This document shows, one piece after another, positions 1-18,461 of a stretch of DNA of 24,000 nucleotides; the stretch's first letter is position 1; every line of letters starts with the position of its first letter. The notes under the pieces are model-generated. The model was not told the origin of the DNA and searched no databases. It saw nothing but the letters and a program-made list of their open reading frames with translations. The DNA comes from Youngiibacter fragilis 232.1 (GTDB lineage Bacteria; Bacillota; Clostridia; Clostridiales; Clostridiaceae). The position numbers and the translations under genes are program-made. The DNA lies in NCBI RefSeq assembly GCF_000495435.3, contig NZ_AXUN02000113.1, positions 2,828 through 26,827 of the forward strand, written 5' to 3'.

Positions 1-280
1 CGAGGTAAGCACAGGACCGAAGCTTGTTGTGGCATCCCAGCCTACCCGTGGACTTGACATAGGAGCCATACAGTACATCAAGCAGGTCCTCCTGCAGCTT
101 AGAAGCGAAGGCAAGGCAGTCCTTCTCATATCCGCTGACCTTACCGACCTGTTCCAGATCAGCGACAGGATAGCAGTCCTTTATAAGGGAGAAGTCATGG
201 ACGTCAGGCCATCGGAAGAATACACCAATGAATCAATCAGCCTTTTGATGGCGGGAAAGAAGGAGGAAAAGAATGGATAA
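1..280 (+). CDS. ABC transporter ATP-binding protein, C-terminal part (gene starts upstream of the window); BMP/Nup-type nucleoside importer ATPase
   Basis: The frame is open from base 2 (EVSTGPKLVVASQPTRGLDIGAI...). It aligns with the C-terminus of the complete 501-aa double ATPase at 13338-14843, with 44 of 82 positions identical by hand count. The stop overlaps the next start (ATGGATAA at 273-280). Confidence 0.9.
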   Translation, partial: EVSTGPKLVVASQPTRGLDIGAIQYIKQVLLQLRSEGKAVLLISADLTDLFQISDRIAVLYKGEVMDVRPSEEYTNESISLLMAGKKEEKNG

Positions 281-1325
281 GGAATACAGGATAAAGCTGC
301 AGGGCCTTTTGTTCAATCTTGGCATTTCTGCATTTGCGATCCTTTTGTCCCTCGTTTTCTCCGCTCTCATCATGCTTGCTGTCGGGTATGATCCGGTGGC
401 GGCATACTCATCCATGCTTAACGGTTCATTCGGAAGCACCCAAGCCATTGCAAACACATTGAGCAAGAGCATACCGCTCATATTCTGCGGATTGTCATTC
501 TCATTCGCCGCAAAAAGCGGTGTCTTCAACATAGGAGGGGAAGGGCAGCTTAACATGGGAGCCCTTGCCAGTGCTGTTGTGGCACTCTCGATGCAGGGAA
601 TGCCCAGAGTCATTGTGATTGGTGCTTCCATACTTGCCGGATTCCTCGCCGGAGGGCTTCTTGGGGTGCTGCTGGGGCTTGCAAAATCCAAGCTTCACCT
701 AAATGAGGTAATCGTGGCAATAATGATGAATTATCTGGTAGCCCTCTTCTGCTCATACGCAGTCAGCGGACCGCTGAAGTACGAAGGTTCAGTGACTCCC
801 CAGACAGAGGCAATGGATAAGATATACATGTTCAGGAACCTTATTCCGAAATCGCAGCTGACCACTGCCCTGCTGCTGGCCCTGCTGCTGGCTCTGGTAA
901 TCTACCTGTTCTTCGCGAAGACGCGTGCAGGTTTCAACATAAGGGTTGTGGGTCAGAATCCAGATGCTGCTAAAGCCTCAGGAATAAAGGTCGGAGCAAT
1001 GATGGTAATCGCAATGGCAGTTTCCGGAGGAATCGCAGGCCTGGGAGGCATGACTGAGGTATTCGGAAAATACGGAAGGTTCATAGACGGATTTTCTCCA
1101 GGGTTCGGATTCACAGGAATTGCTGTTGCAGTTCTTGCAGCAAACAATCCATTCGGACTGATACTTACAGCCATACTTTTCGGAGCAATGGATGCAGGTG
1201 CCATGAAGATGAGCTATGTTGCGGGAATCTCAGCTACCATGGTACAGGTGATCCAGGGTATGGTAATACTCTTCGTCGCCACCCCGAATATCGCCCGTAA
1301 GATACTGTACAGGAAGGAGGCCTAA
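273..1325 (+). CDS. ABC transporter permease (BMP-family nucleoside/simple-sugar importer, NupP/YufP-like)
   Basis: 350-aa polytopic hydrophobic protein with NIGGEGQ and GFTGIAVA motifs typical of this permease family. It is a paralog of 14840-15898 and is translationally coupled to the upstream ATPase. Confidence 0.9.
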   Translation: MDKEYRIKLQGLLFNLGISAFAILLSLVFSALIMLAVGYDPVAAYSSMLNGSFGSTQAIANTLSKSIPLIFCGLSFSFAAKSGVFNIGGEGQLNMGALASAVVALSMQGMPRVIVIGASILAGFLAGGLLGVLLGLAKSKLHLNEVIVAIMMNYLVALFCSYAVSGPLKYEGSVTPQTEAMDKIYMFRNLIPKSQLTTALLLALLLALVIYLFFAKTRAGFNIRVVGQNPDAAKASGIKVGAMMVIAMAVSGGIAGLGGMTEVFGKYGRFIDGFSPGFGFTGIAVAVLAANNPFGLILTAILFGAMDAGAMKMSYVAGISATMVQVIQGMVILFVATPNIARKILYRKEA

Positions 1326-1329
1326 CAGA

Positions 1330-2241
1330 ATGGAGAACCTTACATATTTGTTTTCCTCGGATATGTTCCTTGCCACTCTCAGGCTGTCCATTCCACTGAC
1401 GCTGGCTGCGGTCGGTGCTACGATCTGCCAGAGAAGCGGCGTCATCAATCTTGGAGTCGAGGGAATGATGCTCCTTGGGGCATTCAGCGGAGTTCTTGGA
1501 GTTCATCTTACAGGAAGCCCGTACCTTGGTATAATGCTGTCGCTTGCGGTTGGAGCCCTCATTGGCTGGATATACGCGGTGCTCGTGCTGCATTACGATG
1601 CCAACCAAAGCGTCAGCGGCATAGGCCTGAACGTATTCGCATCCGGACTTACCATAGTCCTGACAAGGGCTGTATGGAAGAGTGACGGATTAAGCGGCAG
1701 CGTCAAGCAGGTCCCAAGCATAACAGTACCTGTACTGTCGGAGATTCCATTTCTCGGCTTGCTTTTCAAGAACCAGTCACCGTATCTTTATTTCACTGTA
1801 ATGATCGTAATCCTTGCCTGGTGGTTCATGTACAGGACAAAGCAGGGACTCAGGCTAAGGGCCATAGGCGAACATGATGAGGCAGCAGCGACAGTGGGAA
1901 TACCTGTCAAGCTGTACAGGTATAAGGCAATAATCGTCTGCGGAATGCTCTGCGCACTTGGCGGGTCATATCTTTCAATTGTCCAGAACAACAGGTTCGT
2001 GAAGGACATGGTAGCGGGACGAGGCTTCATGGCACTTGCCGCCAATATATTCGGCGGAGCAAATCCTCTGGGATCATGGGGTTCAAGCCTGGTATTCGCA
2101 TTCGCGCAGGCCGTAAGGATCAACCTGGAGGTGGACATACCTGACCAGTTCCTTCAGATGCTGCCCTATGCGCTCACGCTGTTCGTACTTCTTATCATTG
2201 GCCTGAAGAACAGAAAGAAGTACAAGGACAAAATCGCTTAA
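1330..2241 (+). CDS. ABC transporter permease (NupQ/YufQ-like second membrane subunit)
   Basis: 303-aa hydrophobic protein containing INLGVEGMML and GRGFMALAANIFGG. It is a paralog of 15900-16805 and starts 5 nt after the previous stop. Confidence 0.9.
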   Translation: MENLTYLFSSDMFLATLRLSIPLTLAAVGATICQRSGVINLGVEGMMLLGAFSGVLGVHLTGSPYLGIMLSLAVGALIGWIYAVLVLHYDANQSVSGIGLNVFASGLTIVLTRAVWKSDGLSGSVKQVPSITVPVLSEIPFLGLLFKNQSPYLYFTVMIVILAWWFMYRTKQGLRLRAIGEHDEAAATVGIPVKLYRYKAIIVCGMLCALGGSYLSIVQNNRFVKDMVAGRGFMALAANIFGGANPLGSWGSSLVFAFAQAVRINLEVDIPDQFLQMLPYALTLFVLLIIGLKNRKKYKDKIA

Positions 2242-2337
2242 GACCAAAACACGAAGCATCAAATGGATATATTGTAGGTTGAGCATCTGCTGTACCTGAG
2301 GTCATCAGATGCGTGCATGATGATTGGAGGATTTTAA

Positions 2338-3120
2338 ATGTCAATACTTAACAAGCATGAAACAACACTTGGACAAAAACAGTATCATATAGCGCTGGCA
2401 CCTGGAGACATCGGAGAATACGTGCTTCTGCCTGGAGACCCAGCCAGATCTGACCGTGTAGCCAAATATCTCGATAATGGAGTGCTCATGGCGAACAACC
2501 GCGAGCACAGGACCTTCACCGGAACCTACAAGGGAATAAAGATAAGTGTCACATCGACCGGAATGGGATGTCCGTCAGCAGCGATCGCTGCGGAAGAGCT
2601 CATCAACATAGGCGCAAAGACGCTGATAAGGATAGGAAGCTCAGCGGCGCTTGATCCCAGGATCAATATCGGAGACCTGATGATAAGCACTTCATCAATG
2701 AAGAATGAAGGAACCTCGAAATTCTATGTTCCAGATTGCTTCCCAGCGGCACCTGATTTTGAGTTTACACACGAACTTATTATGACAGCCAAGGAAATGA
2801 TGGATGAAAGTGAACAAAAAGTATATATTGGAGTTAGTGCAACTGATGATGCGTTCTATGGCGAAACACCTGAATTCCTAGAGAGCCTGAGAAAGCTCAA
2901 GGTCATGAATATAGAGATGGAAGCATCAGCACTCTATACAATAGGACACCTAAGGGATGTAAGGGTAGCATGCATATGCGGCTGTTCGGGAAATCTCACA
3001 AACAGCGAAGTAATCTACACCAAAAAGAACGAAAGGCTTGCTGAAGCCTGGGATAAGGAAATCCAGGTAGTACTGGAAACAATAGCAAGGTTCGAGGAAG
3101 CAAAAAAAGCTAAAAAATAA
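2338..3120 (+). CDS. Nucleoside phosphorylase, PNP_UDP_1 / uridine phosphorylase family (non-canonical base pocket)
   Basis: LPGDPARSDRVA...NREH...STGMGCPSAAIAAEELINIG...LIRIGS...NIEMEASAL aligns by eye along the length of E. coli Udp. A GGAGG RBS lies upstream. The Udp FYPGQER segment is FYGETPE here (2854-2874). Confidence 0.85.
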   Translation: MSILNKHETTLGQKQYHIALAPGDIGEYVLLPGDPARSDRVAKYLDNGVLMANNREHRTFTGTYKGIKISVTSTGMGCPSAAIAAEELINIGAKTLIRIGSSAALDPRINIGDLMISTSSMKNEGTSKFYVPDCFPAAPDFEFTHELIMTAKEMMDESEQKVYIGVSATDDAFYGETPEFLESLRKLKVMNIEMEASALYTIGHLRDVRVACICGCSGNLTNSEVIYTKKNERLAEAWDKEIQVVLETIARFEEAKKAKK

Positions 3121-3155
3121 CATCGGAATTCGATTGATCAATTAAGGAGAGTCAC

Positions 3156-3899
3156 ATGGGAGAAAGAATAGGACAGGAAGATAGAGGAAAGACGCCGGTT
3201 TTTGTAGCAGTCTACGACCGGTTATATGAAATGGTGACTAATGGAACCTATCCTGCTGGGAAAGCACTCCCGCCGGAGCCGAAGCTTGCTGCCCTGCTTG
3301 ACGTAAGCCGTGAAACACTCCGTAAAGCCATGAGGCTCCTTGAAGAGGACGGACTTCTGGAGAAAGTGAAGGGTAAAGGGAATTTTGTTGTGGACCTTAA
3401 CAAACCAGGGGTTTCAAGTCTGGAAAAGCTCGGGAACCCCGTCCGCAAATGCATACAGGTGCCAATTGACGAGGATGTTGAAGTGGAAGTGCGCCTGCAG
3501 TCATCAAGCGATTACGAGCAAAAGCTTTTCAATCGTGAGACGAAGACTGCACTTGCGATTGACAGGTGGTATAGGAGCAACGGAAAGATAGTCGCCTATT
3601 CGCTGACACTTGCACCGATAGAATCAGTTCTGACTCTTGGACTTGACCTTTCAAACAAGTCCGAGGTGCTTGATTTCCTGGAGAACACGGCTTACGAGAT
3701 TGCTAGCCGTGCCCATATCAAGGTGAAGACAACCTGGGTAGGAAAGTTCATAAGCGACCGTTATGTACTTAGCGAGGATGAAGAACTGAGCCTCATACAG
3801 GAGAACCTCTATACTGAAGATGAATTTACACTTCTGATCCACAACAAGCACTACATATTGCCTGAAGTCTGTTCGATCGAGATCAATGCGACGCATTGA
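3156..3899 (+). CDS. GntR-family transcriptional regulator (HutC-like, C-terminal UTRA-type effector domain)
   Basis: N-terminal winged HTH (LPPEPKLAALLDVSRETLRKAMRLLEEDGLLEKVKGKGNFV). 247 aa. AAGGAGA RBS. Paralogous in position and sequence to 17658-18461. Confidence 0.85.
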   Translation: MGERIGQEDRGKTPVFVAVYDRLYEMVTNGTYPAGKALPPEPKLAALLDVSRETLRKAMRLLEEDGLLEKVKGKGNFVVDLNKPGVSSLEKLGNPVRKCIQVPIDEDVEVEVRLQSSSDYEQKLFNRETKTALAIDRWYRSNGKIVAYSLTLAPIESVLTLGLDLSNKSEVLDFLENTAYEIASRAHIKVKTTWVGKFISDRYVLSEDEELSLIQENLYTEDEFTLLIHNKHYILPEVCSIEINATH

Positions 3900-3946: not shown

Positions 3947-5299
3947 ATGGATAATACACTACTGATAAAAAATATAAGGCATCTCGTGACCTGCGATGAC
4001 AAGGATCGCATCCTTGAGGATACCAACCTTTTTGTAAGGGATGGAGTCATCGTATCTATAGGGGACTCACAGCCTGAGGCATCCAGAGTCATAGACGGCT
4101 CGGACCTTGCGGTATATCCGGGACTAGTGAACACGCATCACCACCTGTACCAGATACTGACGAGAAATCTGCCTCAGGTACAGAACCTTGAACTGTTCGA
4201 CTGGCTGACAAAGCTCTACCAGATATGGAAGAACCTGACAACTGACGCCATCTATGACAGCTCAATGGCAGGCATGGGTGAACTTGCGAAATTCGGATGC
4301 AGCACTGTGTTCGACCACCATTATGTTTTCCCGAAGGAAAGCAATGATTTCCTGTCAGCTCAGTTTGAAGCGGCAGGAAAACTCGGAGTCAGGATGGCAG
4401 TATCCAGAGGAAGCATGGACCTGAGCGAAAAGGATGGCGGCCTTCCACCTGATTCGGTTGTTCAGACTATCGATGAAATACTCAGAAGTTCAGAGAGAGC
4501 CGTAAACCAGTTCCATGACCCGAAGGAATACTCAATGAAACAGATTGTGCTTGCACCATGCTCACCCTTCAGCGTAACAGGAGACCTCATGAAGGAGTCA
4601 GCGAAGCTTGCAAGGGACCTTAAGGTAAGGCTCCATACCCATCTGGCGGAGACAATGGATGAAGAGGTCTATCTGAAGGAGAAGCTTGGCATAAGGCCGC
4701 TTGAATATATGGAGAGACTTGGCTGGATCGGTTCCGATGTGTGGTTTGCTCATGGCATCCACTTCAATACCGATGAACTGAAGCATCTTGCTGAGACAGG
4801 TACCGGAGTAGCTCATTGTCCCGCATCAAACATGAAGCTTTCATCAGGAGTAGCAAGGATACCTGAGATGCTGGCATTAGGGGTTCCGGTAGGCCTGGCA
4901 GTAGATGGCAGTGCCAGCAATGATGGTTCAAGCCTCATGGAGGAAATGAGGATAGCATACCTTCTTCACAGGCTAACCTCAGGAGACAAGGCTCCAAGCG
5001 GATACGAAATACTGAAGATAGCTACCAAAGGAAGTGCCAGGTTACTTGGACGACCTGAGCTGGGACATCTTGCCCCAGGTATGGCAGCTGATTTCTTTGC
5101 AGTAAAGGAAAGCCGGCTTGAATTTGCAGGAGCTGCCTTTGATGTCAGTAGCATGCTGTCAACAGTCGGAATCAAGGCTCCTGTGGACTATACGGTAGTT
5201 GCAGGAAAAGTCATAGTCGACAAAGGGATACTTGTGGGTGTGGATGAAGAGGCCCTTACAAGGCGGATCGCTAAGCACTCAAAAGGGATGATGCAGTAG
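3947..5299 (+). CDS. Amidohydrolase-superfamily aminohydrolase, 8-oxoguanine deaminase / chlorohydrolase-like (COG0402 group)
   Basis: Metal-binding NTHHHLYQ near the N-terminus. RGSMDLSEKDGGLPPDSVVQ, HTHLAET, HGIH and the DGSASND aspartate are in the canonical order for this deaminase subgroup. 450 aa. Confidence 0.8.
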   Translation: MDNTLLIKNIRHLVTCDDKDRILEDTNLFVRDGVIVSIGDSQPEASRVIDGSDLAVYPGLVNTHHHLYQILTRNLPQVQNLELFDWLTKLYQIWKNLTTDAIYDSSMAGMGELAKFGCSTVFDHHYVFPKESNDFLSAQFEAAGKLGVRMAVSRGSMDLSEKDGGLPPDSVVQTIDEILRSSERAVNQFHDPKEYSMKQIVLAPCSPFSVTGDLMKESAKLARDLKVRLHTHLAETMDEEVYLKEKLGIRPLEYMERLGWIGSDVWFAHGIHFNTDELKHLAETGTGVAHCPASNMKLSSGVARIPEMLALGVPVGLAVDGSASNDGSSLMEEMRIAYLLHRLTSGDKAPSGYEILKIATKGSARLLGRPELGHLAPGMAADFFAVKESRLEFAGAAFDVSSMLSTVGIKAPVDYTVVAGKVIVDKGILVGVDEEALTRRIAKHSKGMMQ

Positions 5300-5354: not shown

Positions 5355-5377
5355 TTCTATCAGAGCTGGAGGAAACG

Positions 5378-7439: not shown

Positions 7440-8330
7440 ATGAAGATAGTAGTTGTAGGGAGCCTGAACATGGACTACATTTTGCAGGTTCCGCATATCC
7501 CGAAAGAAGGCGAGACCATCCTTTCAACAGAAACAGATACATCTCTGGGAGGCAAGGGCCTGAATCAGGCTGTTGCAGCTGCCCGTTCGGGCGCCGAGGT
7601 AGCGATTATAGGAGCCATCGGTGAGGATGAAGATGGCAAAATCATGAAGGAACTCCTGGTGAAGGAAGGGATTGACCATGAAGGGCTTGATGAACAGCCA
7701 GGGCCTTCAGGCAAGGCATACATATCCATAGATGCAAAGGGTCAGAACACCATCATAGTATCTCCGGGAGCGAATTTCAGGCTTACAGAAGGATGGGTCG
7801 ACGAGCATAGGAAAGTTTTAGAGGATGCTGAGTACTGCATCATGCAGATGGAGGTACAGCTTCCCGTAATCTATTCGACGCTTAGGCTGTGCAGGGAAAT
7901 GGGAGTTAAGGTAATATTCAATCCCGCGCCTGTGAATGCCGCATTCGACAGAAGCTATCTTGGGTTTGTCGACTATCTTGTCGTCAACGAGACAGAACTC
8001 ATACTTCTGAGCGGAGGCGAGGAGGATCCTGAGAAGGCCATATCGAAGCTGCTGGCTGAGGGCGTAAGGAACATAATCTACACCATGGGGTCAGACGGGT
8101 CCAGATTCTGCAGCAGGGAGCTTGACATCAGGATACCTGTTTACAAGGTGAAGGCTGTGGATACGACTGCCGCAGGCGATACATTCATCGGTGCTTTTGC
8201 CAGCCAGTTCGATGGCAGCAACCATACCGAAGCGATGACCTACGCCTCAAGGGCAGCGGCACTTGCTGTCACCAGGGAAGGCGCCATAGGCTCGATACCG
8301 AGGAAGGAAGAGGTTGACCGGATGGCCTGA
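7440..8330 (+). CDS. rbsK: Ribokinase (PfkB family)
   Basis: MKIVVVGSLNMDY, GGKGLNQAVAAAR and the C-terminal DTTAAGDTFIGAF signature with a following TREGA anion-hole region. AAGGAGG RBS. Confidence 0.9.
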   Translation: MKIVVVGSLNMDYILQVPHIPKEGETILSTETDTSLGGKGLNQAVAAARSGAEVAIIGAIGEDEDGKIMKELLVKEGIDHEGLDEQPGPSGKAYISIDAKGQNTIIVSPGANFRLTEGWVDEHRKVLEDAEYCIMQMEVQLPVIYSTLRLCREMGVKVIFNPAPVNAAFDRSYLGFVDYLVVNETELILLSGGEEDPEKAISKLLAEGVRNIIYTMGSDGSRFCSRELDIRIPVYKVKAVDTTAAGDTFIGAFASQFDGSNHTEAMTYASRAAALAVTREGAIGSIPRKEEVDRMA

Positions 8331-8503
8331 GCCCAGTAGAAATGCCGGAATTGTGCAACTATGGAAAAAGGACTTGTTTTCGCAAAAAAAGCTGAAAATA
8401 AGTCCTTTTTTGTGCCATGTGGCATATTCTTATACCGTCTGCAATTGTTATCATATAGTCAATACAACGGGGAATTGATAATATAACCATTATGGAGGGA
8501 AAC

Positions 8504-10024
8504 ATGAAAAAAGACCTTGAAACACTGATCCAGCAGGCACAGCAGATTGCTGCAAATTCCGCACTTACCCACGAGCAGGCTACAAACAGCCTTGCTTCAC
8601 TTCCTGGACAGTTTGCGAACGTGTTCGATTTTCCTGAAGGATTCGAGGAAATGCTCGAAGAGGGACTGCTCTGCAACCTTAGTGAAGGATTTTTGCCATA
8701 TGCCCCGAGATACATACTGCCTGATTACCAGAAGCTGATGGATGAAGGCTGCCAGTTCCTTAGGCTGAAGCCGCCGACGACACTTTCTGAAGCCATACTG
8801 ACACTTGAGATATTCTACAGGCATGTGCCGTCAGTGACCCATTATCCGGTTTACCTTGGCAGGGTTGACAAGATGCTTGAGCCCTTCATAGACGGTGTAA
8901 GCGAAGAAGAGGCTAGGCGTGAGATAAAGAACTTCCTGTTCTTCCTTTCAAGGAGCATTCCTGATTCGTACTGCCACATGAACATAGGGCCTGAAGAGAC
9001 AAAGGCCGGCAACTACATACTGGATGCCGAGATGGAGCTTCAGGAAGCCATCCCTTCGATCACCATGCTTTACGATGAAAAGGTAACCTCCGATGATTTC
9101 TCAGAGAAGGCACTGAGCTGCGCGCAGCTTTGCGCAAAGCCAAGCTTTGCCAACTACAACGATTATCAGGAAGCCAATCCTTTCCCGATAGGAATCGCAA
9201 GCTGCTACAACGCACTGCCTCTTGCTGGAGGAGCGTTTACGCTCTCAAGGGTTATGATCAGCAGGATTGCTGACAAGGTCAATAACAGCGATGAATTCTT
9301 CGAGTTCCTTCCAAAGGCTGTGAACACTCTTTGCACATTTATGGACGAGAAGATCAGGTACCTTGTGGAGGACAGCCATTTCTTCACCACGAACTTCCTC
9401 GTGAAGGAAGGCTTCATAAAGCTTGAGAACTTCACAGGCATGGTTGGAATAGTTGGCCTGAACGAGTGCGTGAATACGCTCCTTGCAAAGGATGGAATTG
9501 ATGGAAGGTATGCCCAGTGCAAGGAAGCAGATGATCTGTCGCACAGGATACTTGCTGCAATGAACCAGCATTTGAATTCATATGAATCAAAATACTGCGA
9601 TGTTACAGGGAACCACTTCCTTCTTCATGCTCAGGTAGGGATAGCGGAGGACATCGGCATCACCCCGGGAATCCGCATAGCAATCGGCGAGGAGCCGGAC
9701 CTCTATACTCACCTCAAGCATGAAAACAAGTTCCAGAAGTACTTTCCGAGCGGAGTCGGTGACATATTCCCCTTTGATGAGACTGCAAAGAACAACGTGG
9801 GAGCCATACTTGACATAGTAAAGGGAAGCTTTTCACAAGGAATGCGTTATTTCTCAACCTACTCCGATACCTGCGACGTTGTAAGGGTAACAGGCTACCT
9901 TGTAAAGAAGTCTGACATAGAGAAGCTTTCAAGGGGCGAGGCAGTAGGACAGGCCAATGCCACATGGGGATACCTGGCATCGAAGAACCAGCATGCCCTT
10001 GAGCGCAAGGTAGAGTCCCTATGA
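8504..10024 (+). CDS. yjjI: YjjI-family glycyl radical enzyme (function unknown)
   Basis: About 506 aa, short for a glycyl radical enzyme (GRE). C-terminal glycyl-radical fingerprint VVRVTGYLV, with the Gly codon at 9893-9895. Candidate Cys loop GIASCYNALPLAGG, with the Cys codon at 9203-9205. ATGA overlap with a dedicated activase. The ATG at 8504 has a GGAGG 5 nt upstream; the ORF-track start at 8492 has none. Confidence 0.75.
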   Translation: MKKDLETLIQQAQQIAANSALTHEQATNSLASLPGQFANVFDFPEGFEEMLEEGLLCNLSEGFLPYAPRYILPDYQKLMDEGCQFLRLKPPTTLSEAILTLEIFYRHVPSVTHYPVYLGRVDKMLEPFIDGVSEEEARREIKNFLFFLSRSIPDSYCHMNIGPEETKAGNYILDAEMELQEAIPSITMLYDEKVTSDDFSEKALSCAQLCAKPSFANYNDYQEANPFPIGIASCYNALPLAGGAFTLSRVMISRIADKVNNSDEFFEFLPKAVNTLCTFMDEKIRYLVEDSHFFTTNFLVKEGFIKLENFTGMVGIVGLNECVNTLLAKDGIDGRYAQCKEADDLSHRILAAMNQHLNSYESKYCDVTGNHFLLHAQVGIAEDIGITPGIRIAIGEEPDLYTHLKHENKFQKYFPSGVGDIFPFDETAKNNVGAILDIVKGSFSQGMRYFSTYSDTCDVVRVTGYLVKKSDIEKLSRGEAVGQANATWGYLASKNQHALERKVESL

Positions 10025-10860
10025 AAGCCCCTGTCAACCACATCATAGACTCAAGCTTCATAGACGGTCCTGGAAACAGGACGGTGATATTCTTCCAGGG
10101 CTGCAACTTCAACTGCAAGTATTGCCACAATCCGGAGACAATAAACCTATGCATCAATTGCGGCCTTTGCGTACCGGGATGCCCTTCGGGAGCACTTGAG
10201 ATGGTTGAAGGCAAGGTTGAATGGGATGAAAAAAGGTGCACTGATTGCGGGGCATGCTACAAGAACTGCCCTTACTCGGCGACACCCAGAGTGAAGGAAA
10301 TGACGGTTGAAGGTGTAATGGAGAGGGTGAAGGCAAATATGCCATTCATCAGGGGGATCACAGTTTCCGGAGGTGAGTGCTCCCTTCAAAGGGATTTTGT
10401 TGTGGAACTCTTCAGGCAGGCTAAGGCGATTGGCTTGGGCACACTCATGGACAGCAACGGGGGACTTCCAATAGCCTTCGATGAGGAACTAATGTCTGTG
10501 ACAGACGGTGTGATGCTGGATATAAAGGGGACTGACCAACTCTTCCATATGGAGCTTACCGGCCGAAGCAATGACATGGTACTTAACAATGCCGTGGAAC
10601 TGGCAAGGCTGGGGAAGCTCACAGAGATAAGGACAGTGGTGCTGCCGGACAATCCGTTCAGCCGTCTCACAGTTGTAAATGCAGGAAATATCCTGGAACC
10701 ATTCCTCAGATGCAGCAAGGTTACCTACAGGCTCATAAAGTTCAGACCAATCGGTGTCAGGGGAGAGGCTCTGACCTGGAAAATGCCGGGACAGGCCCAG
10801 ATGGAGGAGCTCAAGTCACTTGTGGAGGACAAGGGATTCCACAGGGTCATCATAACCTGA
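10021..10860 (+). CDS. yjjW: YjjW-type glycyl radical enzyme activase (radical SAM with two extra ferredoxin-like 4Fe-4S motifs)
   Basis: CNFNCKYC (CX3CX2C, 10102-10125), then CINCGLCVPGC and CTDCGACYKNC, then GITVSGGEC (SAM-binding GGE). 279 aa. The start overlaps the yjjI stop. Confidence 0.85.
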   Translation: MKAPVNHIIDSSFIDGPGNRTVIFFQGCNFNCKYCHNPETINLCINCGLCVPGCPSGALEMVEGKVEWDEKRCTDCGACYKNCPYSATPRVKEMTVEGVMERVKANMPFIRGITVSGGECSLQRDFVVELFRQAKAIGLGTLMDSNGGLPIAFDEELMSVTDGVMLDIKGTDQLFHMELTGRSNDMVLNNAVELARLGKLTEIRTVVLPDNPFSRLTVVNAGNILEPFLRCSKVTYRLIKFRPIGVRGEALTWKMPGQAQMEELKSLVEDKGFHRVIIT

Positions 10861-10963: not shown

Positions 10964-11686
10964 TCAGCCAAATCCATGCTCTTTAGTGTAAGAATCATAC
11001 CTGTCCCTGAGCCTCTGGAATGCGGAGCCTGTGACGACTATCTTGCCATGGCTTCTCTTAATAAGGCCTTCTTCCTCAAGCTGTTCGAGTTGGCGGTAAA
11101 GGGTGCGGCTGCTTATGTTCATAAGCTCTGCGATTTCAGCCTTGTTTGCCTCGATCACATGAGGAAGTAGCTTTCCGGAGCAATTCTCGAACAGGAAGAT
11201 TATCAGGTTCTCATATGGTGTGTTAAGGGTAAGCTGGTCGGTCCTATCAAGCATCCTGGCTGTGAACCTTGCAAGAAATGACAAGGCTGCCAGTGCGATC
11301 TCATGGTTGTTCCTGATTGCACGGAGAAAGAAGGCTGGGCGGATCACCGCGCAATGTGCGCGGGTTTCTGCCTGGAGTGTTACTCCATGCCCCTTTGTTC
11401 CTGTAAGGGACTCATAAAGGCCATAGATCTGGGGAGCCTCTGATATGCCGCTCCTTATGCTCATGCCGCCTGAGCTGTATTTGAAGACCGAAACCTGACC
11501 TTCGATAAGTACCATGAGTCTCTCAACCGGGGCGCCGATATAGGAGAGATATTCACCCTTCTCGAACCATATAAACTGAATGTCCTCATAGGCAACAGTA
11601 TTCAGGAAGGTTTTATCGAGTTTGACTTTGATGTCTCTGGACATTACGGCTTCAAGGAGCCTGGCCAGCTTCTCCTCATTTGTCAC
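10964..11686 (-). CDS. Crp/Fnr-family transcriptional regulator (cNMP-binding-like domain plus C-terminal HTH)
   Basis: 240 aa. C-terminal HTH KAEIAELMNISSRTLYRQLEQLEEEGLI. GTG start with an AGGAGG 8 nt upstream. Only two Cys (AHCAV, ENCSG), so there is no FNR-type Fe-S ligand set. Confidence 0.8.
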   Translation of the reverse strand: MTNEEKLARLLEAVMSRDIKVKLDKTFLNTVAYEDIQFIWFEKGEYLSYIGAPVERLMVLIEGQVSVFKYSSGGMSIRSGISEAPQIYGLYESLTGTKGHGVTLQAETRAHCAVIRPAFFLRAIRNNHEIALAALSFLARFTARMLDRTDQLTLNTPYENLIIFLFENCSGKLLPHVIEANKAEIAELMNISSRTLYRQLEQLEEEGLIKRSHGKIVVTGSAFQRLRDRYDSYTKEHGFG

Positions 11687-12115: not shown

Positions 12116-13210
12116 ATGAAGAAAACGATTGCCATCCTTGGTACATTGCTGCTGTCCGCCTCAATTTTAGCAGGCTGCGGAAGCTCAGCGCCAACAACTC
12201 CTACCGCAGGCCCCACCACACCGTCCCAGTCACAGACTGCAGCTCCAAAGGACTTCAAGGCAGGCATAATATTCACTGAAGCTGGCCTTGGAGGACAATC
12301 CTTCAATGACCTTGCATTCGAAGGAGTCAAGAAGGCTGCCGCTGACCTTGGCATCAAATATGACTATGTTGAGCCGAAGTCAGTTTCTGACGAGGCGATC
12401 GTACAGGAAGACATGGCCTCATCAGGTGAGTATGACATAATCATATGCGTGGGCGCTGAACAGATCGATGCACTTAAGATGGTGGCTGCAAACTATCCTG
12501 AGCAGAAGTTTGCACTTATAGACGCCAATCTTGAACTGCCGAACGTCGCATGCTATACGAGCAAAGAGCAGGAAGGTTCTTTCATGGCTGGAGCACTCGC
12601 TGCACTCATAAAGCAGGAGAAGGCAACAGACAAGGTTGGAGATGGAAAGACAGTCGGTGTCATGGTTGGAGTGAATAATCCGCTTCTTAACAGATTTGTT
12701 GCAGGCTATACTGCAGGTGCCAAGTACATCAACCCTGAGCTTGAAGTGCTTGTTGACTATGTCGGAGGCTTCGGAGACCCAACTACTGCAAAGAACATAG
12801 CCACTACCTTCAATTCGAAGGGTGCTGATGTAATATTCCATGCTGCAGGAGCTTCAGGAATGGGACTCTTCCAGGCAGCACAGGAAAAGGGGTTCGTTGC
12901 TATCGGTGTCAACCTCAACCAGAATGGTGTCGCTCCTGACAACATAGTTGCCAGCATGATGAAGAGGGTAGACTCCAGTGCATATAATGCAATTGAAACC
13001 ACTCTGAACGGGGAATTCAAGGCCGGGCTCAAGGTTATGGGACTTGCTGATGAAGGCGTAGGCCTCAATATGGAAGGAAGCAACATAAAGCTGCCTGAAA
13101 GCGTGACAAAGAAGCTTGATGAGATCAAAGAGCTTGTGGTTTCAGGGAAACTGGTTATACCAGCTGCGATCGAAGAGGTCAATCCATTCCTGGAAGCGAA
13201 CAAGAAATAA
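12116..13210 (+). CDS. BMP-family ABC transporter substrate-binding lipoprotein (PnrA/NupN/Med-like, nucleoside-binding)
   Basis: Signal peptide with lipobox ILAGC (Cys codon 12176-12178) and a Thr/Pro-rich linker. BMP-family body (AGIIFTEAGLGGQSFND, GVNNPLLNRFVAGY). GGGGG RBS. Confidence 0.9.
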   Translation: MKKTIAILGTLLLSASILAGCGSSAPTTPTAGPTTPSQSQTAAPKDFKAGIIFTEAGLGGQSFNDLAFEGVKKAAADLGIKYDYVEPKSVSDEAIVQEDMASSGEYDIIICVGAEQIDALKMVAANYPEQKFALIDANLELPNVACYTSKEQEGSFMAGALAALIKQEKATDKVGDGKTVGVMVGVNNPLLNRFVAGYTAGAKYINPELEVLVDYVGGFGDPTTAKNIATTFNSKGADVIFHAAGASGMGLFQAAQEKGFVAIGVNLNQNGVAPDNIVASMMKRVDSSAYNAIETTLNGEFKAGLKVMGLADEGVGLNMEGSNIKLPESVTKKLDEIKELVVSGKLVIPAAIEEVNPFLEANKK

Positions 13211-13337
13211 TCTGACAATACTGATGGGCGGTTTGGGCTCCGGAGTGTTCTGCTGGCTGCAGGATAATTGAGGATATCCCGTACCGCCTGTTTCTGAATT
13301 AAGGCAGCCATACTATACCAAGAACGGAGGGAAACTG

Positions 13338-14843
13338 ATGCCGATAATTGACATGAGGCAGATAACGAAGCGTTTTCCGGGTGTTGTCGCAAACGACAAG
13401 GTGGATTTTCAGGTAGAAAAGCAGGAGATACATTGCCTTCTGGGTGAGAACGGATCCGGAAAGACTACGCTTATGAATGTGCTCTTTGGCCTGTACCATC
13501 CGGAAGAGGGAGAAATATACGTAAAGGGAGAGAAGGTGCGCATAAGCAATCCCAATGATGCCTACAAGCTGGGCATAGGAATGGTGCACCAGCACTTCAT
13601 GCTGGTAAACCAGATGACTGTGCTTGAAAACATCATTCTGGGCAATGAGTGCGGGAGCTTCTTCCTGGACAGGAAAGAGAGCGAAGCTGCGGTCAGGGAC
13701 CTGATTACGAGGTTCAACTTCAAGCTTGACCTCAACCAGAAGATAGCTGACCTTTCAGTCGGAATGAAGCAGAGGGTTGAAATCGTGAAGACCCTTTATC
13801 GCGGGGCCGATATAATCATCCTTGATGAGCCCACTGCGGTCCTTACTCCTCAGGAGGTGGCAGACCTTTTTGTCATTCTCCATCAGCTGCGCAGAGATGG
13901 TAAAACTATCATATTCATAACCCACAAGCTTAATGAGACCATGGAGATGTCTGACAGCGTGACAGTCCTCAGGAAGGGTGTCAAGGTTGCCGACCTGAAG
14001 ACCAGGGATGTGAATCAGAACGACCTTGCGGCACACATGGTGGGCAGACAGGTTGAGCATATTGTGAGTGACAGTGTGGAAAGCTATGGTGAGGTTGTGC
14101 TTTCGATAAAGGACCTGGTCTTGAATGACAAGACAAGGATTCCTGTGAACCTTTCTGTCCGCGCAGGAGAGATCCTTGGCATAGCAGGGGTAGAAGGCAA
14201 CGGACAGCAGGAGCTTGAGGAGCTTATCATTGGAACCATGCCGGTGCGTTCCGGTAAAATCGAGATCAACGGGCAGGACATTACCAGCAAGCCTGTAAAG
14301 GACAGGAAGGACCTTGGTATAGGCTACATTCCAGCGGACAGGCACAAGAACGCCATCCTCAGCAACTTCTCAATAATTGAGAATTACCTGCTCGGTTACC
14401 ACAAGGACAAGGACTATATAAAGAATGGATTCATAGACTTCAGGAAGCTGGAGAGCGACGCTGACAGGTTCGTCACGGAATTCAATGCGAAGGTTGCCGA
14501 CATCGGAGACCCCATTTCTTCACTCTCCGGAGGAAACCAGCAGAAGATTGTCTTAAGTCGTGAGGTAAGCCATGATCCTATACTGGTTATTGCTGCACAA
14601 CCTGTGAGAGGGCTTGACATAGGCGCCATCGAGTTCATACATAAGACGCTTCTGAGACTGAGGCATGAGAAGAAGGCAATCCTGCTCATATCTGCAGAGC
14701 TTTCGGAGGTAATGAACCTTTCTGACAGGATAGCGGTACTTTATGAAGGCCAGGTAAGCGCAGAATTCCCAAGAGGCAAGTACAACCAGGAGCAGATCGG
14801 ACTGTTCATGGCAGGAAGAACAGAGAAGGAGGTTGAAGTATGA
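13338..14843 (+). CDS. ABC transporter ATP-binding protein with two fused ATPase domains
   Basis: Walker A GENGSGKTT, signature LSVGMKQR, Walker B IIILDEPT, and a second-domain signature LSGGNQQK. 501 aa. GGAGGG RBS. Confidence 0.92.
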   Translation: MPIIDMRQITKRFPGVVANDKVDFQVEKQEIHCLLGENGSGKTTLMNVLFGLYHPEEGEIYVKGEKVRISNPNDAYKLGIGMVHQHFMLVNQMTVLENIILGNECGSFFLDRKESEAAVRDLITRFNFKLDLNQKIADLSVGMKQRVEIVKTLYRGADIIILDEPTAVLTPQEVADLFVILHQLRRDGKTIIFITHKLNETMEMSDSVTVLRKGVKVADLKTRDVNQNDLAAHMVGRQVEHIVSDSVESYGEVVLSIKDLVLNDKTRIPVNLSVRAGEILGIAGVEGNGQQELEELIIGTMPVRSGKIEINGQDITSKPVKDRKDLGIGYIPADRHKNAILSNFSIIENYLLGYHKDKDYIKNGFIDFRKLESDADRFVTEFNAKVADIGDPISSLSGGNQQKIVLSREVSHDPILVIAAQPVRGLDIGAIEFIHKTLLRLRHEKKAILLISAELSEVMNLSDRIAVLYEGQVSAEFPRGKYNQEQIGLFMAGRTEKEVEV

Positions 14844-15898
14844 GCGAAACAGCAAAAAAACGGTCTAAACTGAAGGCACTGTCAGCACTTGGAGATTTCG
14901 GAAGCTCACTGCTCAGCGTCTCCATAGCGCTGGTACTTGGAGCCGTTATCATTCTGGTAATCGGGGAGGATCCCATAGAGGCATATACCGCACTACTTCA
15001 GGGTGCGCTCGGTAACGCAAGGAGCATAGCAAACACCTTCAGCAAGAGCATACCTCTTGCATTCACCGGCCTGGCTGTGGCAATGGCCAACAGGGGAGGT
15101 ATGCTGAACATCGGAGCTGAAGGTCAGCTTCACGCAGGTGCCATGGCATCAGTGCTGGTTGCACTGGCTCTGCCAGGACTACCTGTGGCTGTCCTTCTGC
15201 CTCTCTGCATAATTACAGGAGTTGCTGCTGGAATGCTTGTCGGATTTATCCCGGGATACTTCAAGGCAAAGAAGCAGACAAGCGAGGTAATAGTGGCAAT
15301 AATGCTGAACTATATCGTGACTCTCTTCATGTCATTCCTCGTCAATGGACCGTTCAAGGCTGAGGGTTCCGTATCGCAGACAAATGCGATATCCGAGGGC
15401 CTGATGCTTACGAAGCTTGTCGGGAATTCACAGTTAACCACTGCCCTGTTCATACTCCTTGCGGTTGCGGCAGCCCAATATATCTTCCTTTGGAAGAGCG
15501 CTGCGGGCTTCCAGCTTAGGGCTGTGGGAAGCAATCCTTCGGCATCAGTATCTGCGGGAATGAATGCAAAGAAACTGATGATATTCGCAATGGCACTGAG
15601 CGGAGGCATAGCTTCACTTGCAGGAGTGACCGAGGTCATGGGTAAGTACGGGAGATACATCGAAGGGTTTTCACCCTCCTTCGGATTCACTGGTATAGCC
15701 GTGGCTATACTCGGAAGGAATCATCCCGGTGGTGTGCTCCTGACATCACTGCTTTTCGGAATACTTGATACCGGAGCGCTCAGGATGGGAAGGGTCACCA
15801 ATGTCTCTGCCAACATAATTGTAGTGATGCAGAGCCTTGTAATACTTCTTGTTTCAGCACCTGAAATCGCGAAACTGATAAGAAGGAGGAGTCGATGA
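14840..15898 (+). CDS. ABC transporter permease (NupP/YufP-like)
   Basis: 352-aa hydrophobic protein with NIGAEGQ and GFTGIAVA. ATGA overlap with the ATPase stop. Paralog of 273-1325. Confidence 0.9.
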   Translation: MSETAKKRSKLKALSALGDFGSSLLSVSIALVLGAVIILVIGEDPIEAYTALLQGALGNARSIANTFSKSIPLAFTGLAVAMANRGGMLNIGAEGQLHAGAMASVLVALALPGLPVAVLLPLCIITGVAAGMLVGFIPGYFKAKKQTSEVIVAIMLNYIVTLFMSFLVNGPFKAEGSVSQTNAISEGLMLTKLVGNSQLTTALFILLAVAAAQYIFLWKSAAGFQLRAVGSNPSASVSAGMNAKKLMIFAMALSGGIASLAGVTEVMGKYGRYIEGFSPSFGFTGIAVAILGRNHPGGVLLTSLLFGILDTGALRMGRVTNVSANIIVVMQSLVILLVSAPEIAKLIRRRSR

Positions 15899-15899
15899 A

Positions 15900-16805
15900 A
15901 TGGAACTTTTCTCTAGGATGATAACATTGACACTGCAGCTTTCAGTTCCGCTTGTACTCGGCGCCATGTGCGGCACCATTGCGGAAAGGGGAGGAATAAT
16001 ACTTCTCGGTGTCGAAGGCCTCATGCTTCTCGGTGCATTTACAGGAGTCCTTGGTTCGCACCTTTCCGGAAACGCATATGTCGGACTCCTGTTTTCAATA
16101 GTTGGCGGCGGAATATTCGGATACCTGTACACCCTGTTCTGCCTTAAGCTCAAGGCACACCAGTCTGTTGTAGGTGTTGGAGTCAATATGTTCGCCAGCG
16201 GAATAACCGCCGTGCTGCTGAAGGTTTTCTGGAACAGGGAAGGCATGAGCGATCCTGTTGCCTCCATACCGAATGTGACGGTCCCAGTGATTTCGGAGAT
16301 ACCGGTTATTGGCATGCTGTTCAAGGATCAGTCCCCTTACCTGTACCTCATGATACTTATAGTCGCGACTGTATGGGTGGTATTTTACCGAACCAAGGTC
16401 GGCCTGAGATATAGGGCCATCGGAGAGCAGCCGTTCGCAGTGCAGACATCAGGAATCAATGTAAATAAGTACAGGTATGTAGCCATGGTCTTTGCAGGTG
16501 TAGTAGCCGGAGTAGGCGGTTCATTCCTGTCGCTTTCCCAGAACAACCTGTTCGTAATGGACATGACTGCAGGCAGGGGCTTCATGGGACTAGCGGCAAA
16601 TATTTTCGGAGGATGGAATCCAATAGGGTCTTTCCTTGCAGGCATGGTATTCGCTGTGGCGCAGACAATCAGGTTCTACGCCTCTGATATCAAGATCCCT
16701 ATCCAGTTCATTCAGATGATGCCATATCTCCTGACTCTCTTCATATTGCTGTTTGTCGGCAAGAAGGCAAAGGGTCCGGAAGCTCTGGGCAAGCTGGTAA
16801 AGTGA
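15900..16805 (+). CDS. ABC transporter permease (NupQ/YufQ-like)
   Basis: 301-aa hydrophobic protein with GRGFMGLAANIFGG. It starts 2 nt after the previous stop. Paralog of 1330-2241. Confidence 0.9.
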   Translation: MELFSRMITLTLQLSVPLVLGAMCGTIAERGGIILLGVEGLMLLGAFTGVLGSHLSGNAYVGLLFSIVGGGIFGYLYTLFCLKLKAHQSVVGVGVNMFASGITAVLLKVFWNREGMSDPVASIPNVTVPVISEIPVIGMLFKDQSPYLYLMILIVATVWVVFYRTKVGLRYRAIGEQPFAVQTSGINVNKYRYVAMVFAGVVAGVGGSFLSLSQNNLFVMDMTAGRGFMGLAANIFGGWNPIGSFLAGMVFAVAQTIRFYASDIKIPIQFIQMMPYLLTLFILLFVGKKAKGPEALGKLVK

Positions 16806-16810
16806 TGATA

Positions 16811-16839
16811 TTGACAACTGAACATGGTCATATAATAAT
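16811..16839 (+). promoter_or_regulatory. Candidate internal promoter upstream of the second nucleoside phosphorylase
   Basis: A perfect TTGACA (16811-16816) and a perfect TATAAT (16831-16836) are only 14 bp apart. The alternative is TTGACA-N17-AATAAT. The spacing is suboptimal in either reading. Confidence 0.35.
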
Positions 16840-16857
16840 GTGTAATGGAGGATAACA

Positions 16858-17631
16858 ATGCAGGATAATCAGAAGATGATGCATATAGCCCTTTCAAAGG
16901 ACCAGGTAGGCAAGTACGCCTTCCTGCCGGGGAGTCCTGAAAGGGTTCCAAGAATTGCCGCTTTCCTGAGAGATTCAGAAAAGGTCGCGCAGAACAGGGA
17001 GCATACCAGTTACAGGGGTTATATCGGTGATACCCCTGTTATGGTGGTCTCCACAGGAATGGGAGGTCCTTCAACCGCGATATGCCTTGAGGAGCTCGTC
17101 AAGCTCGGAGTGACTACCTTCATAAGGATAGGCACCTGCGCCTCCACATCTGCACTCGTCGAGCGCGGTGACATAGTGATACCAACAGGTGCGGTCAGGA
17201 TGGAAGGGACCTCTTCGCACTACCTTCCCCTTGAATACCCATCTGTACCTGACTATTCCCTTGTTAAGAAGATAGAGGAGGCGGCAATCGCGCAGGGTTT
17301 CAGGTACAACACGGGAGTAACGATAACAAAGGATTCCTTCTATACGCAGACTGAACCTGAGACAAGGCCTATCGGCTATGAGCTCATTAACAAATGGACT
17401 GCATATGAAAAGGGCGGGGCCACCAGCACAAGCATGGAGGAAGCACTGCTGTTCATAGCAGCCACAAGCCTTGGAGTCAGGGCTGCCTCGGCACTCATTT
17501 CAGCTACGAACTACAAGAGCTACGACCAGGACAATATACTGTCACCCCTGGAAATTGAGAAGAGGGTGATAATTACAGGTGTGGAAGCCATGAGATTGGT
17601 AATAGAGGAAGACAAGAGAAAATCCAGGTAG
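16858..17631 (+). CDS. Nucleoside phosphorylase, PNP_UDP_1 / uridine phosphorylase family (second paralog)
   Basis: LPGSPERVPRIA...NREH...STGMGGPSTAICLEELVKLG...FIRIGT is Udp-like. The FYPGQER segment is FYTQTEP here (from 17338). GGAGGA RBS. Confidence 0.85.
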   Translation: MQDNQKMMHIALSKDQVGKYAFLPGSPERVPRIAAFLRDSEKVAQNREHTSYRGYIGDTPVMVVSTGMGGPSTAICLEELVKLGVTTFIRIGTCASTSALVERGDIVIPTGAVRMEGTSSHYLPLEYPSVPDYSLVKKIEEAAIAQGFRYNTGVTITKDSFYTQTEPETRPIGYELINKWTAYEKGGATSTSMEEALLFIAATSLGVRAASALISATNYKSYDQDNILSPLEIEKRVIITGVEAMRLVIEEDKRKSR

Positions 17632-17657
17632 TGGCATAATCTATAGCAAATAAGGAT

Positions 17658-18461
17658 GTGTTTGAATTGGCACAGGTCACTTCAGTAACGGAAAAAGAAA
17701 GGAAGCTTCCTTTGTTCGTGGCTGCATACGAGACTATGTACAACAGGATAAAGGATGGGACGTATAAGCCCGGGGATAAGCTGCCAAGCGAAAGTGAGTT
17801 GTCTGTCGAGCTTGCGATAAGCAGAGGCACTCTAAGACAGGCTATGCTTCTACTTCAGGAGGACGGCCTTATAATGAACTATAAGGGTAAGGGAAGCTTT
17901 GTACTTGAAACAAACAAGGAACTGAGCACAGGGATAGAGAAGATCGTAAATCCCCTGATAACATGCAGCATCCAGCCCATTGACAAGGTAGTTACCGAGA
18001 TGCACTTCCAGCCGGCTACAGAACCTCATAAGAAGTTGTTTGACCTTCCTCAGTCATCGCTTGTATCCCGGGCTGAGTTCTCATACTTCATAAAGGACAA
18101 GGTAGTTGGATTCGCGCTGGTATTCATGCCTTATGACCTTCTGGTTGAGAACGGGGTGGCAATAGACGACAATGACGAGATTCACAGGTTCTACAACAGC
18201 TTTCTCACAACTGAAAGACTCAGCTGTGAAAGTGTACTGAGGATGGGATTTGCCCGGAAGTTGACAGCTGATAAGATGCATATTAAGGAAAAGGAACCGA
18301 TCCTCATAATGGAGGAGACATTCTATATGGGAAACCGGCCTTCAATGCAGCAGAAGATATTCTTCCTACCCGCGTACTATGAGTTGAAGATTCTAAGGTC
18401 AAATGACAGATATACCTCTAAGCAGGGTACACAGGGTCCGTTGTCATCTGATAAGCTCTAG
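17658..18461 (+). CDS. GntR-family transcriptional regulator (HutC-like)
   Basis: wHTH KLPSESELSVELAISRGTLRQAMLLLQEDGLIMNYKGKGSFV. Same position in the module as 3156-3899. The GTG start is uncertain by a few codons. Confidence 0.8.
   Translation: MFELAQVTSVTEKERKLPLFVAAYETMYNRIKDGTYKPGDKLPSESELSVELAISRGTLRQAMLLLQEDGLIMNYKGKGSFVLETNKELSTGIEKIVNPLITCSIQPIDKVVTEMHFQPATEPHKKLFDLPQSSLVSRAEFSYFIKDKVVGFALVFMPYDLLVENGVAIDDNDEIHRFYNSFLTTERLSCESVLRMGFARKLTADKMHIKEKEPILIMEETFYMGNRPSMQQKIFFLPAYYELKILRSNDRYTSKQGTQGPLSSDKL

Follow-up and report, generated by a model that had tools for sequence, protein, structure and literature searches.

The locus studied here raises the question of whether the genes that surround a glycyl radical enzyme can tell what that enzyme acts upon. 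A stretch of 24,000 nucleotides from Youngiibacter fragilis 232.1 (contig NZ_AXUN02000113.1, positions 2,828 to 26,827 of the forward strand; the window in what follows) carries the genes of a YjjI-family glycyl radical enzyme (8492..10024, plus strand; PF11230, TIGR04040) and of its YjjW-family radical S-adenosylmethionine (SAM) activase (10021..10860, plus strand; TIGR04041) amid genes for nucleoside uptake and cleavage. The original prediction saw in this arrangement an echo of the Escherichia coli K-12 map, where the same pair adjoins the deo operon, and took the agreement of two distant lineages as the sign of a shared pathway rather than of chance. YjjI is among the last E. coli glycyl radical enzymes without an assigned reaction, and the window pair is an ordinary member of a catalogued family without assigned function. 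No function assignment for YjjI was found in the literature searched: a preprint of August 2026 treats it as an uncharacterised putative glycyl radical enzyme (bioRxiv 10.64898/2026.08.13.742689), and a review of June 2026 that covers glycyl radical enzymes comprehensively leaves it out altogether. The analyses presented here indicate that YjjI has been linked repeatedly, in independently assembled loci, to genes of nucleoside uptake and cleavage; this linkage is real, it is not universal, and by itself it is no proof of a pathway.

Linkage of yjjI to nucleoside genes

YjjI loci were collected from species-representative genomes (15 loci), from a sample of 401 evenly drawn genomes of the window's phylum (true YjjI in 23 genomes belonging to 13 GTDB families), from metagenome contigs (80 loci) and from six large replicons of a plasmid collection. 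These six records, chromosome-sized or large, supplied the other classes and phyla, to which one case from the literature was added. Several records filed in that collection have the size of chromosomes (Proteus mirabilis, 4.08 Mb; Aeromonas caviae, 4.94 Mb; E. coli, 4.8-4.9 Mb) and come with nearly empty gene tables. The 110 loci with a complete YjjI open reading frame (ORF) were grouped into 23 lineages at 65% YjjI identity. Neighbouring ORFs were labelled by phmmer, using as markers the proteins encoded in the window together with the Deo proteins of E. coli, and the immediate neighbours left without a label were submitted to 70 Pfam scans. As core nucleoside genes we counted those of BMP-type binding proteins, PNP_UDP_1 phosphorylases, inosine-uridine-preferring nucleoside hydrolases (IU-NH), DeoA, DeoB and DeoC within eight genes of YjjI, with NupC added and a distance of about 10 kb applied in the pooled count of all sources, and 20 windows of 20 kb, located 20-350 kb from yjjI on the same contigs of ten sampled genomes, served as controls.

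Core nucleoside genes appeared near YjjI in nine of the 19 assessable lineages (0, 1, 2, 7, 10, 11, 16, 18 and 22) versus none of the 20 control windows (Fisher p = 4e-4). Within the evenly drawn Bacillota sample, four of ten assessable GTDB families were linked, again versus 0/20 controls (p = 0.008), and when all sources were pooled the figure was about 10 of 26 assessable lineages. In the window's genome, a core nucleoside gene is found within 10 kb of only 4.1% of positions, and the linkage rate is roughly ten times the chance expectation. At least six changes are required to explain the linked state on a maximum-likelihood tree of 59 YjjI sequences (with shuffled labels the mean was 14.6 and the minimum 9), on which the linked loci fall into six separate groups: E. 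coli, lineage 11, lineages 10 and 22 together, lineage 7, lineage 18, and a clade that unites lineages 16 and 2 with lineage 1, to which the window belongs. For at least six linked clades out of 14, the binomial probability is 1e-5 if p = 0.041 and 1.5e-3 if p = 0.10. The E. coli YjjI itself groups with Firmicutes sequences on this tree. Haemophilus influenzae, where YjjI neighbours the NupC transporter (PMC5609409), is a further linked lineage with an importer of a different family. Bmp adjoins YjjI in seven lineages, which makes a nucleoside importer the most constant type of partner, and no other catabolic theme was found to recur comparably among the YjjI neighbours of the sampled loci. 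Hence, with the loci grouped by lineage, the idea that linkage reflects a shared pathway and not chance holds as an enrichment over controls, seen in several clades and with varied gene orders, whereas as a general rule it fails, linkage being literally absent from most YjjI lineages (about 16 of 26).

The linked loci differ in partners as well as in gene order. In lineage 2, YjjI heads a whole nucleoside operon behind a Crp-type site (Crp< YjjI-YjjW-IUNH-Bmp-ABC-Perm-Perm-RbsK-PNP, where ABC is an ATP-binding cassette protein, Perm a permease and PNP a PNP_UDP_1 phosphorylase), a single operon with gaps of at most 58 bp. Lineage 18 (34 loci, several of them labelled as human-gut contigs) places YjjI-YjjW after the gene of the BMP binding protein or after the whole importer, and the operon goes on with DeoC and, at some loci, also with adenosine deaminase, DeoB and PNP; the fullest locus reads PNP-Bmp-[YjjI-YjjW]-ABC-Perm-Perm-DeoC-adenosine deaminase-DeoB-PNP. 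DeoC lies near YjjI in E. coli and at 14 lineage 18 loci and is missing from most linked loci. In lineage 11, which is one Bacillota family, an operon YjjI-YjjW-MtnA-class II aldolase is followed by a SorC regulator and a Bmp-ABC importer (L028:5496-10801, minus strand), the MtnA being a methylthioribose-1-phosphate isomerase by TIGR00512 (448 bits). MtnA and class II aldolase are enzymes of the 5-deoxyribose/methylthioribose 'dihydroxyacetone phosphate (DHAP) shunt', and their presence hints at 5'-deoxynucleosides or ribose-1-phosphate as possible pathway intermediates. Lineage 10 has PNP, DeoB, Crp and YjjI in this order. In lineage 7 a family 4 glycosyltransferase and a base-excision-type glycosylase of the HhH-GPD type stand between a Bmp-ABC importer and YjjI and share their orientation (L019:10754-12321, minus strand).

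The unlinked set consists of ten further sampled lineages and of all six records from other classes or phyla. There the pair has as neighbours RuvAB/QueA and a GGDEF protein (lineage 4), a DcuC-type carrier and a signal peptidase (Paraclostridium), methionyl-tRNA synthetase (MetRS) and TatD (lineage 21), or peptidases and SDF-type carriers; lineage 6, with a PfkB kinase, LacI and a phosphotransferase system component, has the look of a sugar locus. Proteus mirabilis shows smp-serB-radA and an autotransporter beside the pair and no deo genes within 9 kb, and Vibrio a LysR regulator, a methyltransferase and IS110. The neighbours are also unrelated in Microbulbifer, in Haliovirga (Fusobacteriota), which has a Crp-type gene, in a Chloroflexota bacterium and in Aeromonas. 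Given that neighbours were annotated by single-sequence phmmer markers and, for the immediate ones, by Pfam, more distant genes of rare nucleoside families may be missed in these counts. A search for NupC-type transporters at all loci gave one match, in L087 at 7 kb from YjjI, so that the unlinked calls are not due to the lack of that marker.

Some further features of these loci may be recorded. In Vibrio sp. THAF190c (L149:12510-15137) the region 1-3 kb downstream of yjjW encodes an IS110-family transposase and a dGTPase-like HD phosphohydrolase, and a YjjG-like nucleotidase lies 6.5 kb upstream, a position similar to that in E. coli. The YjjI frame of Aeromonas caviae KAM479 (NZ_AP026896.1, L150:9301-9450) contains an in-frame stop and substitutions at two conserved positions (PVWLWRLD*, in the family PVYLG..D), and it is probably a pseudogene, or else the record has sequence errors. 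The YjjI of L036:9218-10693 has a very long branch (1.05 changes per column), with no YjjW-like gene detected in the following 3 kb before the contig end, and may be a decaying or diverged copy.

Fold and conserved residues of YjjI

The window YjjI matches PF11230 over profile positions 1-484 of 485 (E 5.9e-189; 628.9 bits, cut-off 23) and TIGR04040 with 613.3 bits (cut-off 498.3), and the window YjjW matches TIGR04041 with 350.8 bits (cut-off 250.2). YjjW contains the radical SAM cluster motif CNFNCKYC (CX3CX2C) and two ferredoxin-type CxxCxxCxxxCP motifs. In the 69 YjjI sequences compared, the segments R465-V-T467-G468-Y469 (RVTGY), with the radical glycine G468, and S237-C238-Y-N240 (SCYN) are invariant; C238 is the sole invariant cysteine. 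Also invariant are five arginines (R73, R253, R395, R465 and R505), which would fit an anionic substrate, for instance a phosphate ester. That a glycyl radical is actually formed on YjjI has indirect support, since a radical probe labelled Gly465 of the E. coli protein in live cells (bioRxiv 10.64898/2026.08.13.742689).

No solved structure of YjjI was found by sequence search, the only match being a weak one to 4-hydroxyphenylacetate decarboxylase. An AlphaFold2 model was obtained from the 69 sequences (pLDDT 94.7, pTM 0.93). Its best Foldseek matches were class III ribonucleotide reductases (9dau_B, 9dca_A and 1hk8; E 4.5e-18 to 7e-17; TMq 0.68-0.74), at 13-14% sequence identity, and a partial match to PF13597 (41 bits) was also observed in YjjI. 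Enzymes of the pyruvate formate-lyase (PFL) type, including PflD and YbiW (PDB 8id0, 8id7 and 8yjo), ranked after them. These two share with YjjI the ten-stranded barrel superfamily (TMq 0.68-0.70 for the YjjI model), yet they have about 770-810 residues versus 510 in YjjI and belong to other Pfam families, and no match at sequence level was found.

Profile-profile alignment of YjjI with eight sequences of the class III reductase NrdD (hhalign, probability 99%) set C238 on the finger-loop thiyl cysteine of NrdD (YMGC) and G468 on its radical glycine (RITGY). Both enzymes need a radical SAM activase; however, YjjW belongs to the PFL-activase type and carries two additional ferredoxin clusters, unlike the NrdG type that serves NrdD. 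The reducing apparatus of NrdD comprises the Met-x-Cys of the finger loop and a second cysteine on the bottom face. In YjjI, the aligned loop reads IASC, so that the methionine becomes Ala236, and the segment of the second NrdD cysteine (TLTC) aligns with PYAP, where the cysteine becomes Pro72, in a region of low alignment confidence; YjjI has no second conserved cysteine. It also lacks the ATP cone, the match starting near position 130 of the 706-position NrdD profile, and the C-terminal zinc ribbon, the CxxC...CPxC segment ahead of RITGY in NrdD having no counterpart. As modelled, YjjI is thus a class III ribonucleotide reductase-like fold that keeps the radical glycine and the loop cysteine. 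The missing ATP cone, zinc ribbon and Met/Cys reducing pair argue against an allosterically controlled nucleotide reductase driven by formate or thiols. Taken together with the invariant arginines, the comparison would point to a simpler radical reaction, an elimination or a cleavage, whose substrate is an anionic ribosyl compound.

Gene content and transcription units of the window

Six-frame ORFs of positions 7440-10860 and their flanks were scanned with Pfam and NCBIfam profiles, and the gene content originally read there (rbsK, YjjI and YjjW amid nucleoside hydrolases and phosphorylases) was correct. The same is true of the genome, taken to be Firmicutes-like: the window YjjI shares 94-95% identity with its counterparts in Youngiibacter multivorans and a Clostridiaceae metagenome-assembled genome, versus 39% with that of E. 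coli. The plus strand upstream of the pair encodes two BPD_transp_2 permeases of a BMP-type (nucleoside-type) ABC importer (273..2241), whose binding protein is encoded on the same contig, immediately left of the window (Bmp marker match G000:C129:509-1471); a PNP_UDP_1 nucleoside phosphorylase, uridine-phosphorylase-like but under the equivalog cut-off (2338..3120); a GntR-family regulator (3156..3899); an amidohydrolase (3947..5299) that passes the NCBIfam equivalog for 8-oxoguanine deaminase (578 bits, cut-off 532); two tandem inosine-uridine-preferring nucleoside hydrolases (5336-6400 and 6418-7392); and a ribokinase, a PfkB kinase that passes the equivalog TIGR02152 (7440..8330; 309.7 bits, cut-off 299.65). 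The deaminase-type enzyme (3947-5299) is unusual beside nucleoside hydrolases and may handle damaged or modified purines. Downstream of the pair come a Crp/Fnr-family regulator with a cyclic nucleotide-binding domain and a helix-turn-helix (10964..11686, minus strand), convergent with yjjW, and a second nucleoside module made of a BMP/PnrA-like binding protein, an ABC ATPase, two permeases, a PNP_UDP_1 phosphorylase and a GntR regulator (12116..18461, plus strand). The YjjI-YjjW-Crp unit is hence flanked by paralogous nucleoside modules (273-3899 and 12116-18461), each with a BMP-type ABC importer, PNP_UDP_1 and GntR; a third cluster in the same genome, on contig C69, holds RbsK, Bmp and two IU-NH genes. 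There is no deoC inside the window, the only deoC-like match of the genome being on another contig.

The two genes of the pair are closely tied: they are neighbours on one strand, yjjI first, in 100 of the 110 loci, in 90 of which they overlap or lie within 10 bp of each other, and in the window the start of yjjW overlaps the stop of yjjI in ATGA, which suggests translational coupling. The gap between rbsK and yjjI, which are on the same strand, is 161 bp in the window and holds a hairpin and a palindrome. The hairpin, with a run of U, lies directly 3' of rbsK (8364..8411, plus strand); the stretch 8355-8430, which contains it together with a second small stem, folds at -29.6 kcal/mol (z -5.8; none of 200 shuffles was as stable), and the hairpin is kept in Y. 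multivorans, where a G-U pair is replaced by A-U. Its features are those of an intrinsic terminator, and yjjI-yjjW thus probably form a transcription unit of their own and not the tail of an rbsK operon. The palindrome, 16 bp long (8411..8426, without strand; TGTGCCATGTGGCATA, core TGCCA-N2-TGGCA), is located 81 bp upstream of the YjjI start and is a candidate operator of the adjacent Crp-family regulator. Palindromes TGCCA-N2-TGGCA or TGACA-N2-TGTCA occur 81-108 bp upstream of YjjI in lineages 1, 2, 3 and 19, all with an adjacent Crp-family gene, and such a gene adjoins YjjI in seven lineages. A strict CRP-like pattern, TGTG-N8-CACA, was rejected as the shared operator, having matched in the window's own lineage only. 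The N-terminal cysteine cluster of FNR is absent from the window regulator, which is thus more likely to be a ligand sensor than a direct sensor of oxygen.

A search for this shared palindrome across the window's genome returned 11 sites for 3.2 expected, most of them in a repeated element upstream of a 416-residue ORF. The 16-mer GATGCCAACTGGCAAT is present in six contigs (C3:5738, C4:739, C9:51855, C24:25676, C57:80963 and C118:6534), in three of them about 60 bp upstream of a 416-residue ORF, and is probably part of a multi-copy insertion element.

The pair beside deoCABD in E. coli

The K-12 gene order and numbers given in the original prediction proved exact: in NC_000913.3, yjjW (b4379) and yjjI (b4380) are on the minus strand and deoC (b4381), deoA, deoB and deoD (b4384) on the plus strand, with a spacer of 257 bp. 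The pair is therefore divergent from deoC and not co-transcribed with deoCABD. As in the window, the E. coli proteins exceed the curated cut-offs of TIGR04040, TIGR04041 and PF11230, YjjI has the glycine motif and a single loop cysteine, the genes of enzyme and activase overlap, and the neighbours belong to nucleoside catabolism. The context is nevertheless different: the E. coli pair points away from deoCABD and houses operators of DeoR inside yjjI, whereas the window pair follows a ribokinase and two nucleoside hydrolases and is accompanied by a Crp-family regulator.

The DeoR operator palindrome TGTTAGAATTCTAACA has a perfect copy (O1) at L001 8665, 386 bp inside the yjjI coding sequence, and a second predicted copy (O2), with one mismatch, at L001 9264 in the yjjI-deoC spacer; an OE-like site is found further inside yjjI at L001 8386, 279 bp from O1. 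The 599 bp between O1 and O2 agree with the published deoP1-deoP2 spacing, associated with looping by DeoR (PMC3334521), and this layout of DeoR operators within yjjI has long been known. A TatD/YjjV-like hydrolase is encoded a few genes away from yjjI-yjjW in E. coli (L001:5482-6261) and in two unrelated lineages (L097:4336-5121 and L117:15465-16310); that of L117 comes after MetRS, a common housekeeping pair, and may be there by coincidence.

Discussion

From the linkage and from the features of the protein we propose that yjjI-yjjW form a module that carries out an oxygen-sensitive radical reaction on some product of nucleoside breakdown, most likely on the ribosyl part and there most probably on a pentose phosphate, a reading that we judge as evenly poised between right and wrong. 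In the window, nucleosides would be imported through the BMP-type ABC systems, and their N-glycosidic bond would be split either by hydrolysis through the IU-nucleoside hydrolases or by phosphorolysis through PNP_UDP_1 enzymes. The base would then be deaminated and the released ribose phosphorylated by ribokinase, after which YjjI, the next gene, may act, our best guess for its substrate being a pentose phosphate such as ribose-5-phosphate, ribose-1-phosphate or their deoxy forms. Support for a substrate of this kind comes from the fact that both cleavage routes, hydrolase with ribokinase and phosphorylase with DeoB, occur beside YjjI and end at pentose-5-phosphate. As regards the chemistry, the radical on G468 would oxidise the loop cysteine C238, which would abstract a hydrogen from the sugar ring, and redox-neutral elimination or lyase chemistry might follow instead of the reductive route of ribonucleotide reductases. 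PflD and YbiW offer precedents for glycyl radical enzymes that act on phosphorylated sugar derivatives. The data establish the membership of the family, its fold, its conserved residues, the gene orders and the enriched linkage, whereas the class of substrate and the kind of chemistry are inferred from them. The two-gene module would often be served by a dedicated Crp-family regulator with a palindromic operator 81-108 bp upstream. The fuller proposal, in which YjjI is a hitherto overlooked radical enzyme in the catabolism of nucleosides or pentoses, a stripped-down relative of the anaerobic ribonucleotide reductase carrying out redox-neutral elimination or cleavage on a ribosyl phosphate or a nucleoside, is more tentative, and we lean somewhat against it.

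Several observations count against this proposal. The pair stands isolated amid unrelated genes in about 60% of lineages (about 16/26). In the Gammaproteobacteria, four of the six sampled lineages (Proteus, Vibrio, Aeromonas and Microbulbifer) are unlinked, the linked ones being E. coli and H. influenzae, and consequently the E. coli adjacency by itself is weak and not significant. The agreement of two lineages, from which the prediction started, is by itself weak evidence for a pathway link, and the statistics of the linkage are carried by the Firmicutes clades. The sample consists mostly of Bacillota and gut metagenomes, other phyla being represented by single records each. In the window itself, the terminator-like hairpin parts rbsK from yjjI and makes co-transcription with the nucleoside genes less certain; likewise, the search for Crp-type palindromes throughout the window's genome found no site at other nucleoside genes, and hence no sign of a wider regulon.

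Among the alternatives, the most probable is that YjjI is a radical C-N or C-O lyase of the intact nucleoside, possibly of one that is modified or resists hydrolysis, for instance a 5'-deoxynucleoside, working parallel to the hydrolases and phosphorylases and not downstream of them. The most constant partner being an importer (Bmp in seven lineages, NupC in H. influenzae) agrees well with it, as do the position of YjjI-YjjW directly after the binding-protein gene in lineage 18, the MtnA and class II aldolase of lineage 11, which process 5-deoxy- or 5-methylthio-ribose-1-phosphate, and an NrdD-like fold, which binds a whole nucleotide. Nevertheless, YjjI has neither ATP cone nor zinc ribbon and also lacks the segment ahead of the NrdD catalytic core, its invariant arginines suggest that the ligand is anionic, unlike a free nucleoside, and isolated yjjI-yjjW pairs without a nearby importer are common. 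We consider this possibility unlikely.

Slightly less probable still is that no pathway link exists, yjjI-yjjW with or without Crp being a mobile compact cassette of accessory catabolic islands for which nucleoside loci are frequent landing sites, or with which they are co-inherited. The tightness of the pair, the unrelated neighbours in most lineages, the IS110 transposase beside it in Vibrio and the copies on plasmid-sized replicons of Haliovirga (298 kb), the Chloroflexota bacterium (180 kb) and Microbulbifer (454 kb) would be expected of such a cassette, and the place of E. coli YjjI among Firmicutes sequences on the tree is in line with it. Yet nucleoside loci cover just about 4% of the window's genome and none of the control windows contained one, while at least six clades are linked, with the low binomial probabilities given above; moreover, no other catabolic theme recurs comparably, and in lineage 2 a nucleoside operon is headed by YjjI behind a Crp-type site.

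It is improbable, in our estimation, that YjjI is a true reductase which converts ribose phosphate (or a nucleoside) to the 2-deoxy form, either feeding DeoC, to give glyceraldehyde-3-phosphate and acetaldehyde, or supplying deoxyribose-1-phosphate for deoxynucleoside synthesis. The class III ribonucleotide reductases as closest fold and DeoC as neighbour in E. coli and at the 14 lineage 18 loci speak for such an activity, but DeoC is missing from most linked loci and YjjI has a single invariant cysteine, Ala236 in the place of the Met-x-Cys methionine and Pro72, in the less certain part of the alignment, in that of the bottom-face cysteine.

Finally, an action of YjjI on the released nucleobase or in nitrogen metabolism is very improbable: both cleavage routes also free the base, deaminases are neighbours (8-oxoguanine-deaminase-type in the window, adenosine deaminase in lineage 18), and a multi-species biclustering of 2011 in E. 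coli and Salmonella grouped yjjI with narG-type genes and guessed at nitrogen metabolism (PMC3228777), but that co-expression may reflect anaerobic induction alone and genes that degrade purine or pyrimidine rings do not recur beside YjjI in the sampled loci.

Since most lineages are unlinked, YjjI should not be annotated from its gene neighbourhood alone. The supported linkage does narrow its candidate substrates to nucleosides, ribose, deoxyribose and their 1- and 5-phosphates, and the comparison with the residues of NrdD indicates the chemistry to be expected. If the proposed role is true, the deo and rbs pathways would have an oxygen-sensitive branch in E. coli as well as in anaerobes of gut and sediment, and were activity on a substrate of this range to be proven, it would represent a new class of reaction in the ribonucleotide reductase branch and a new step in the anaerobic nucleoside metabolism of gut bacteria.

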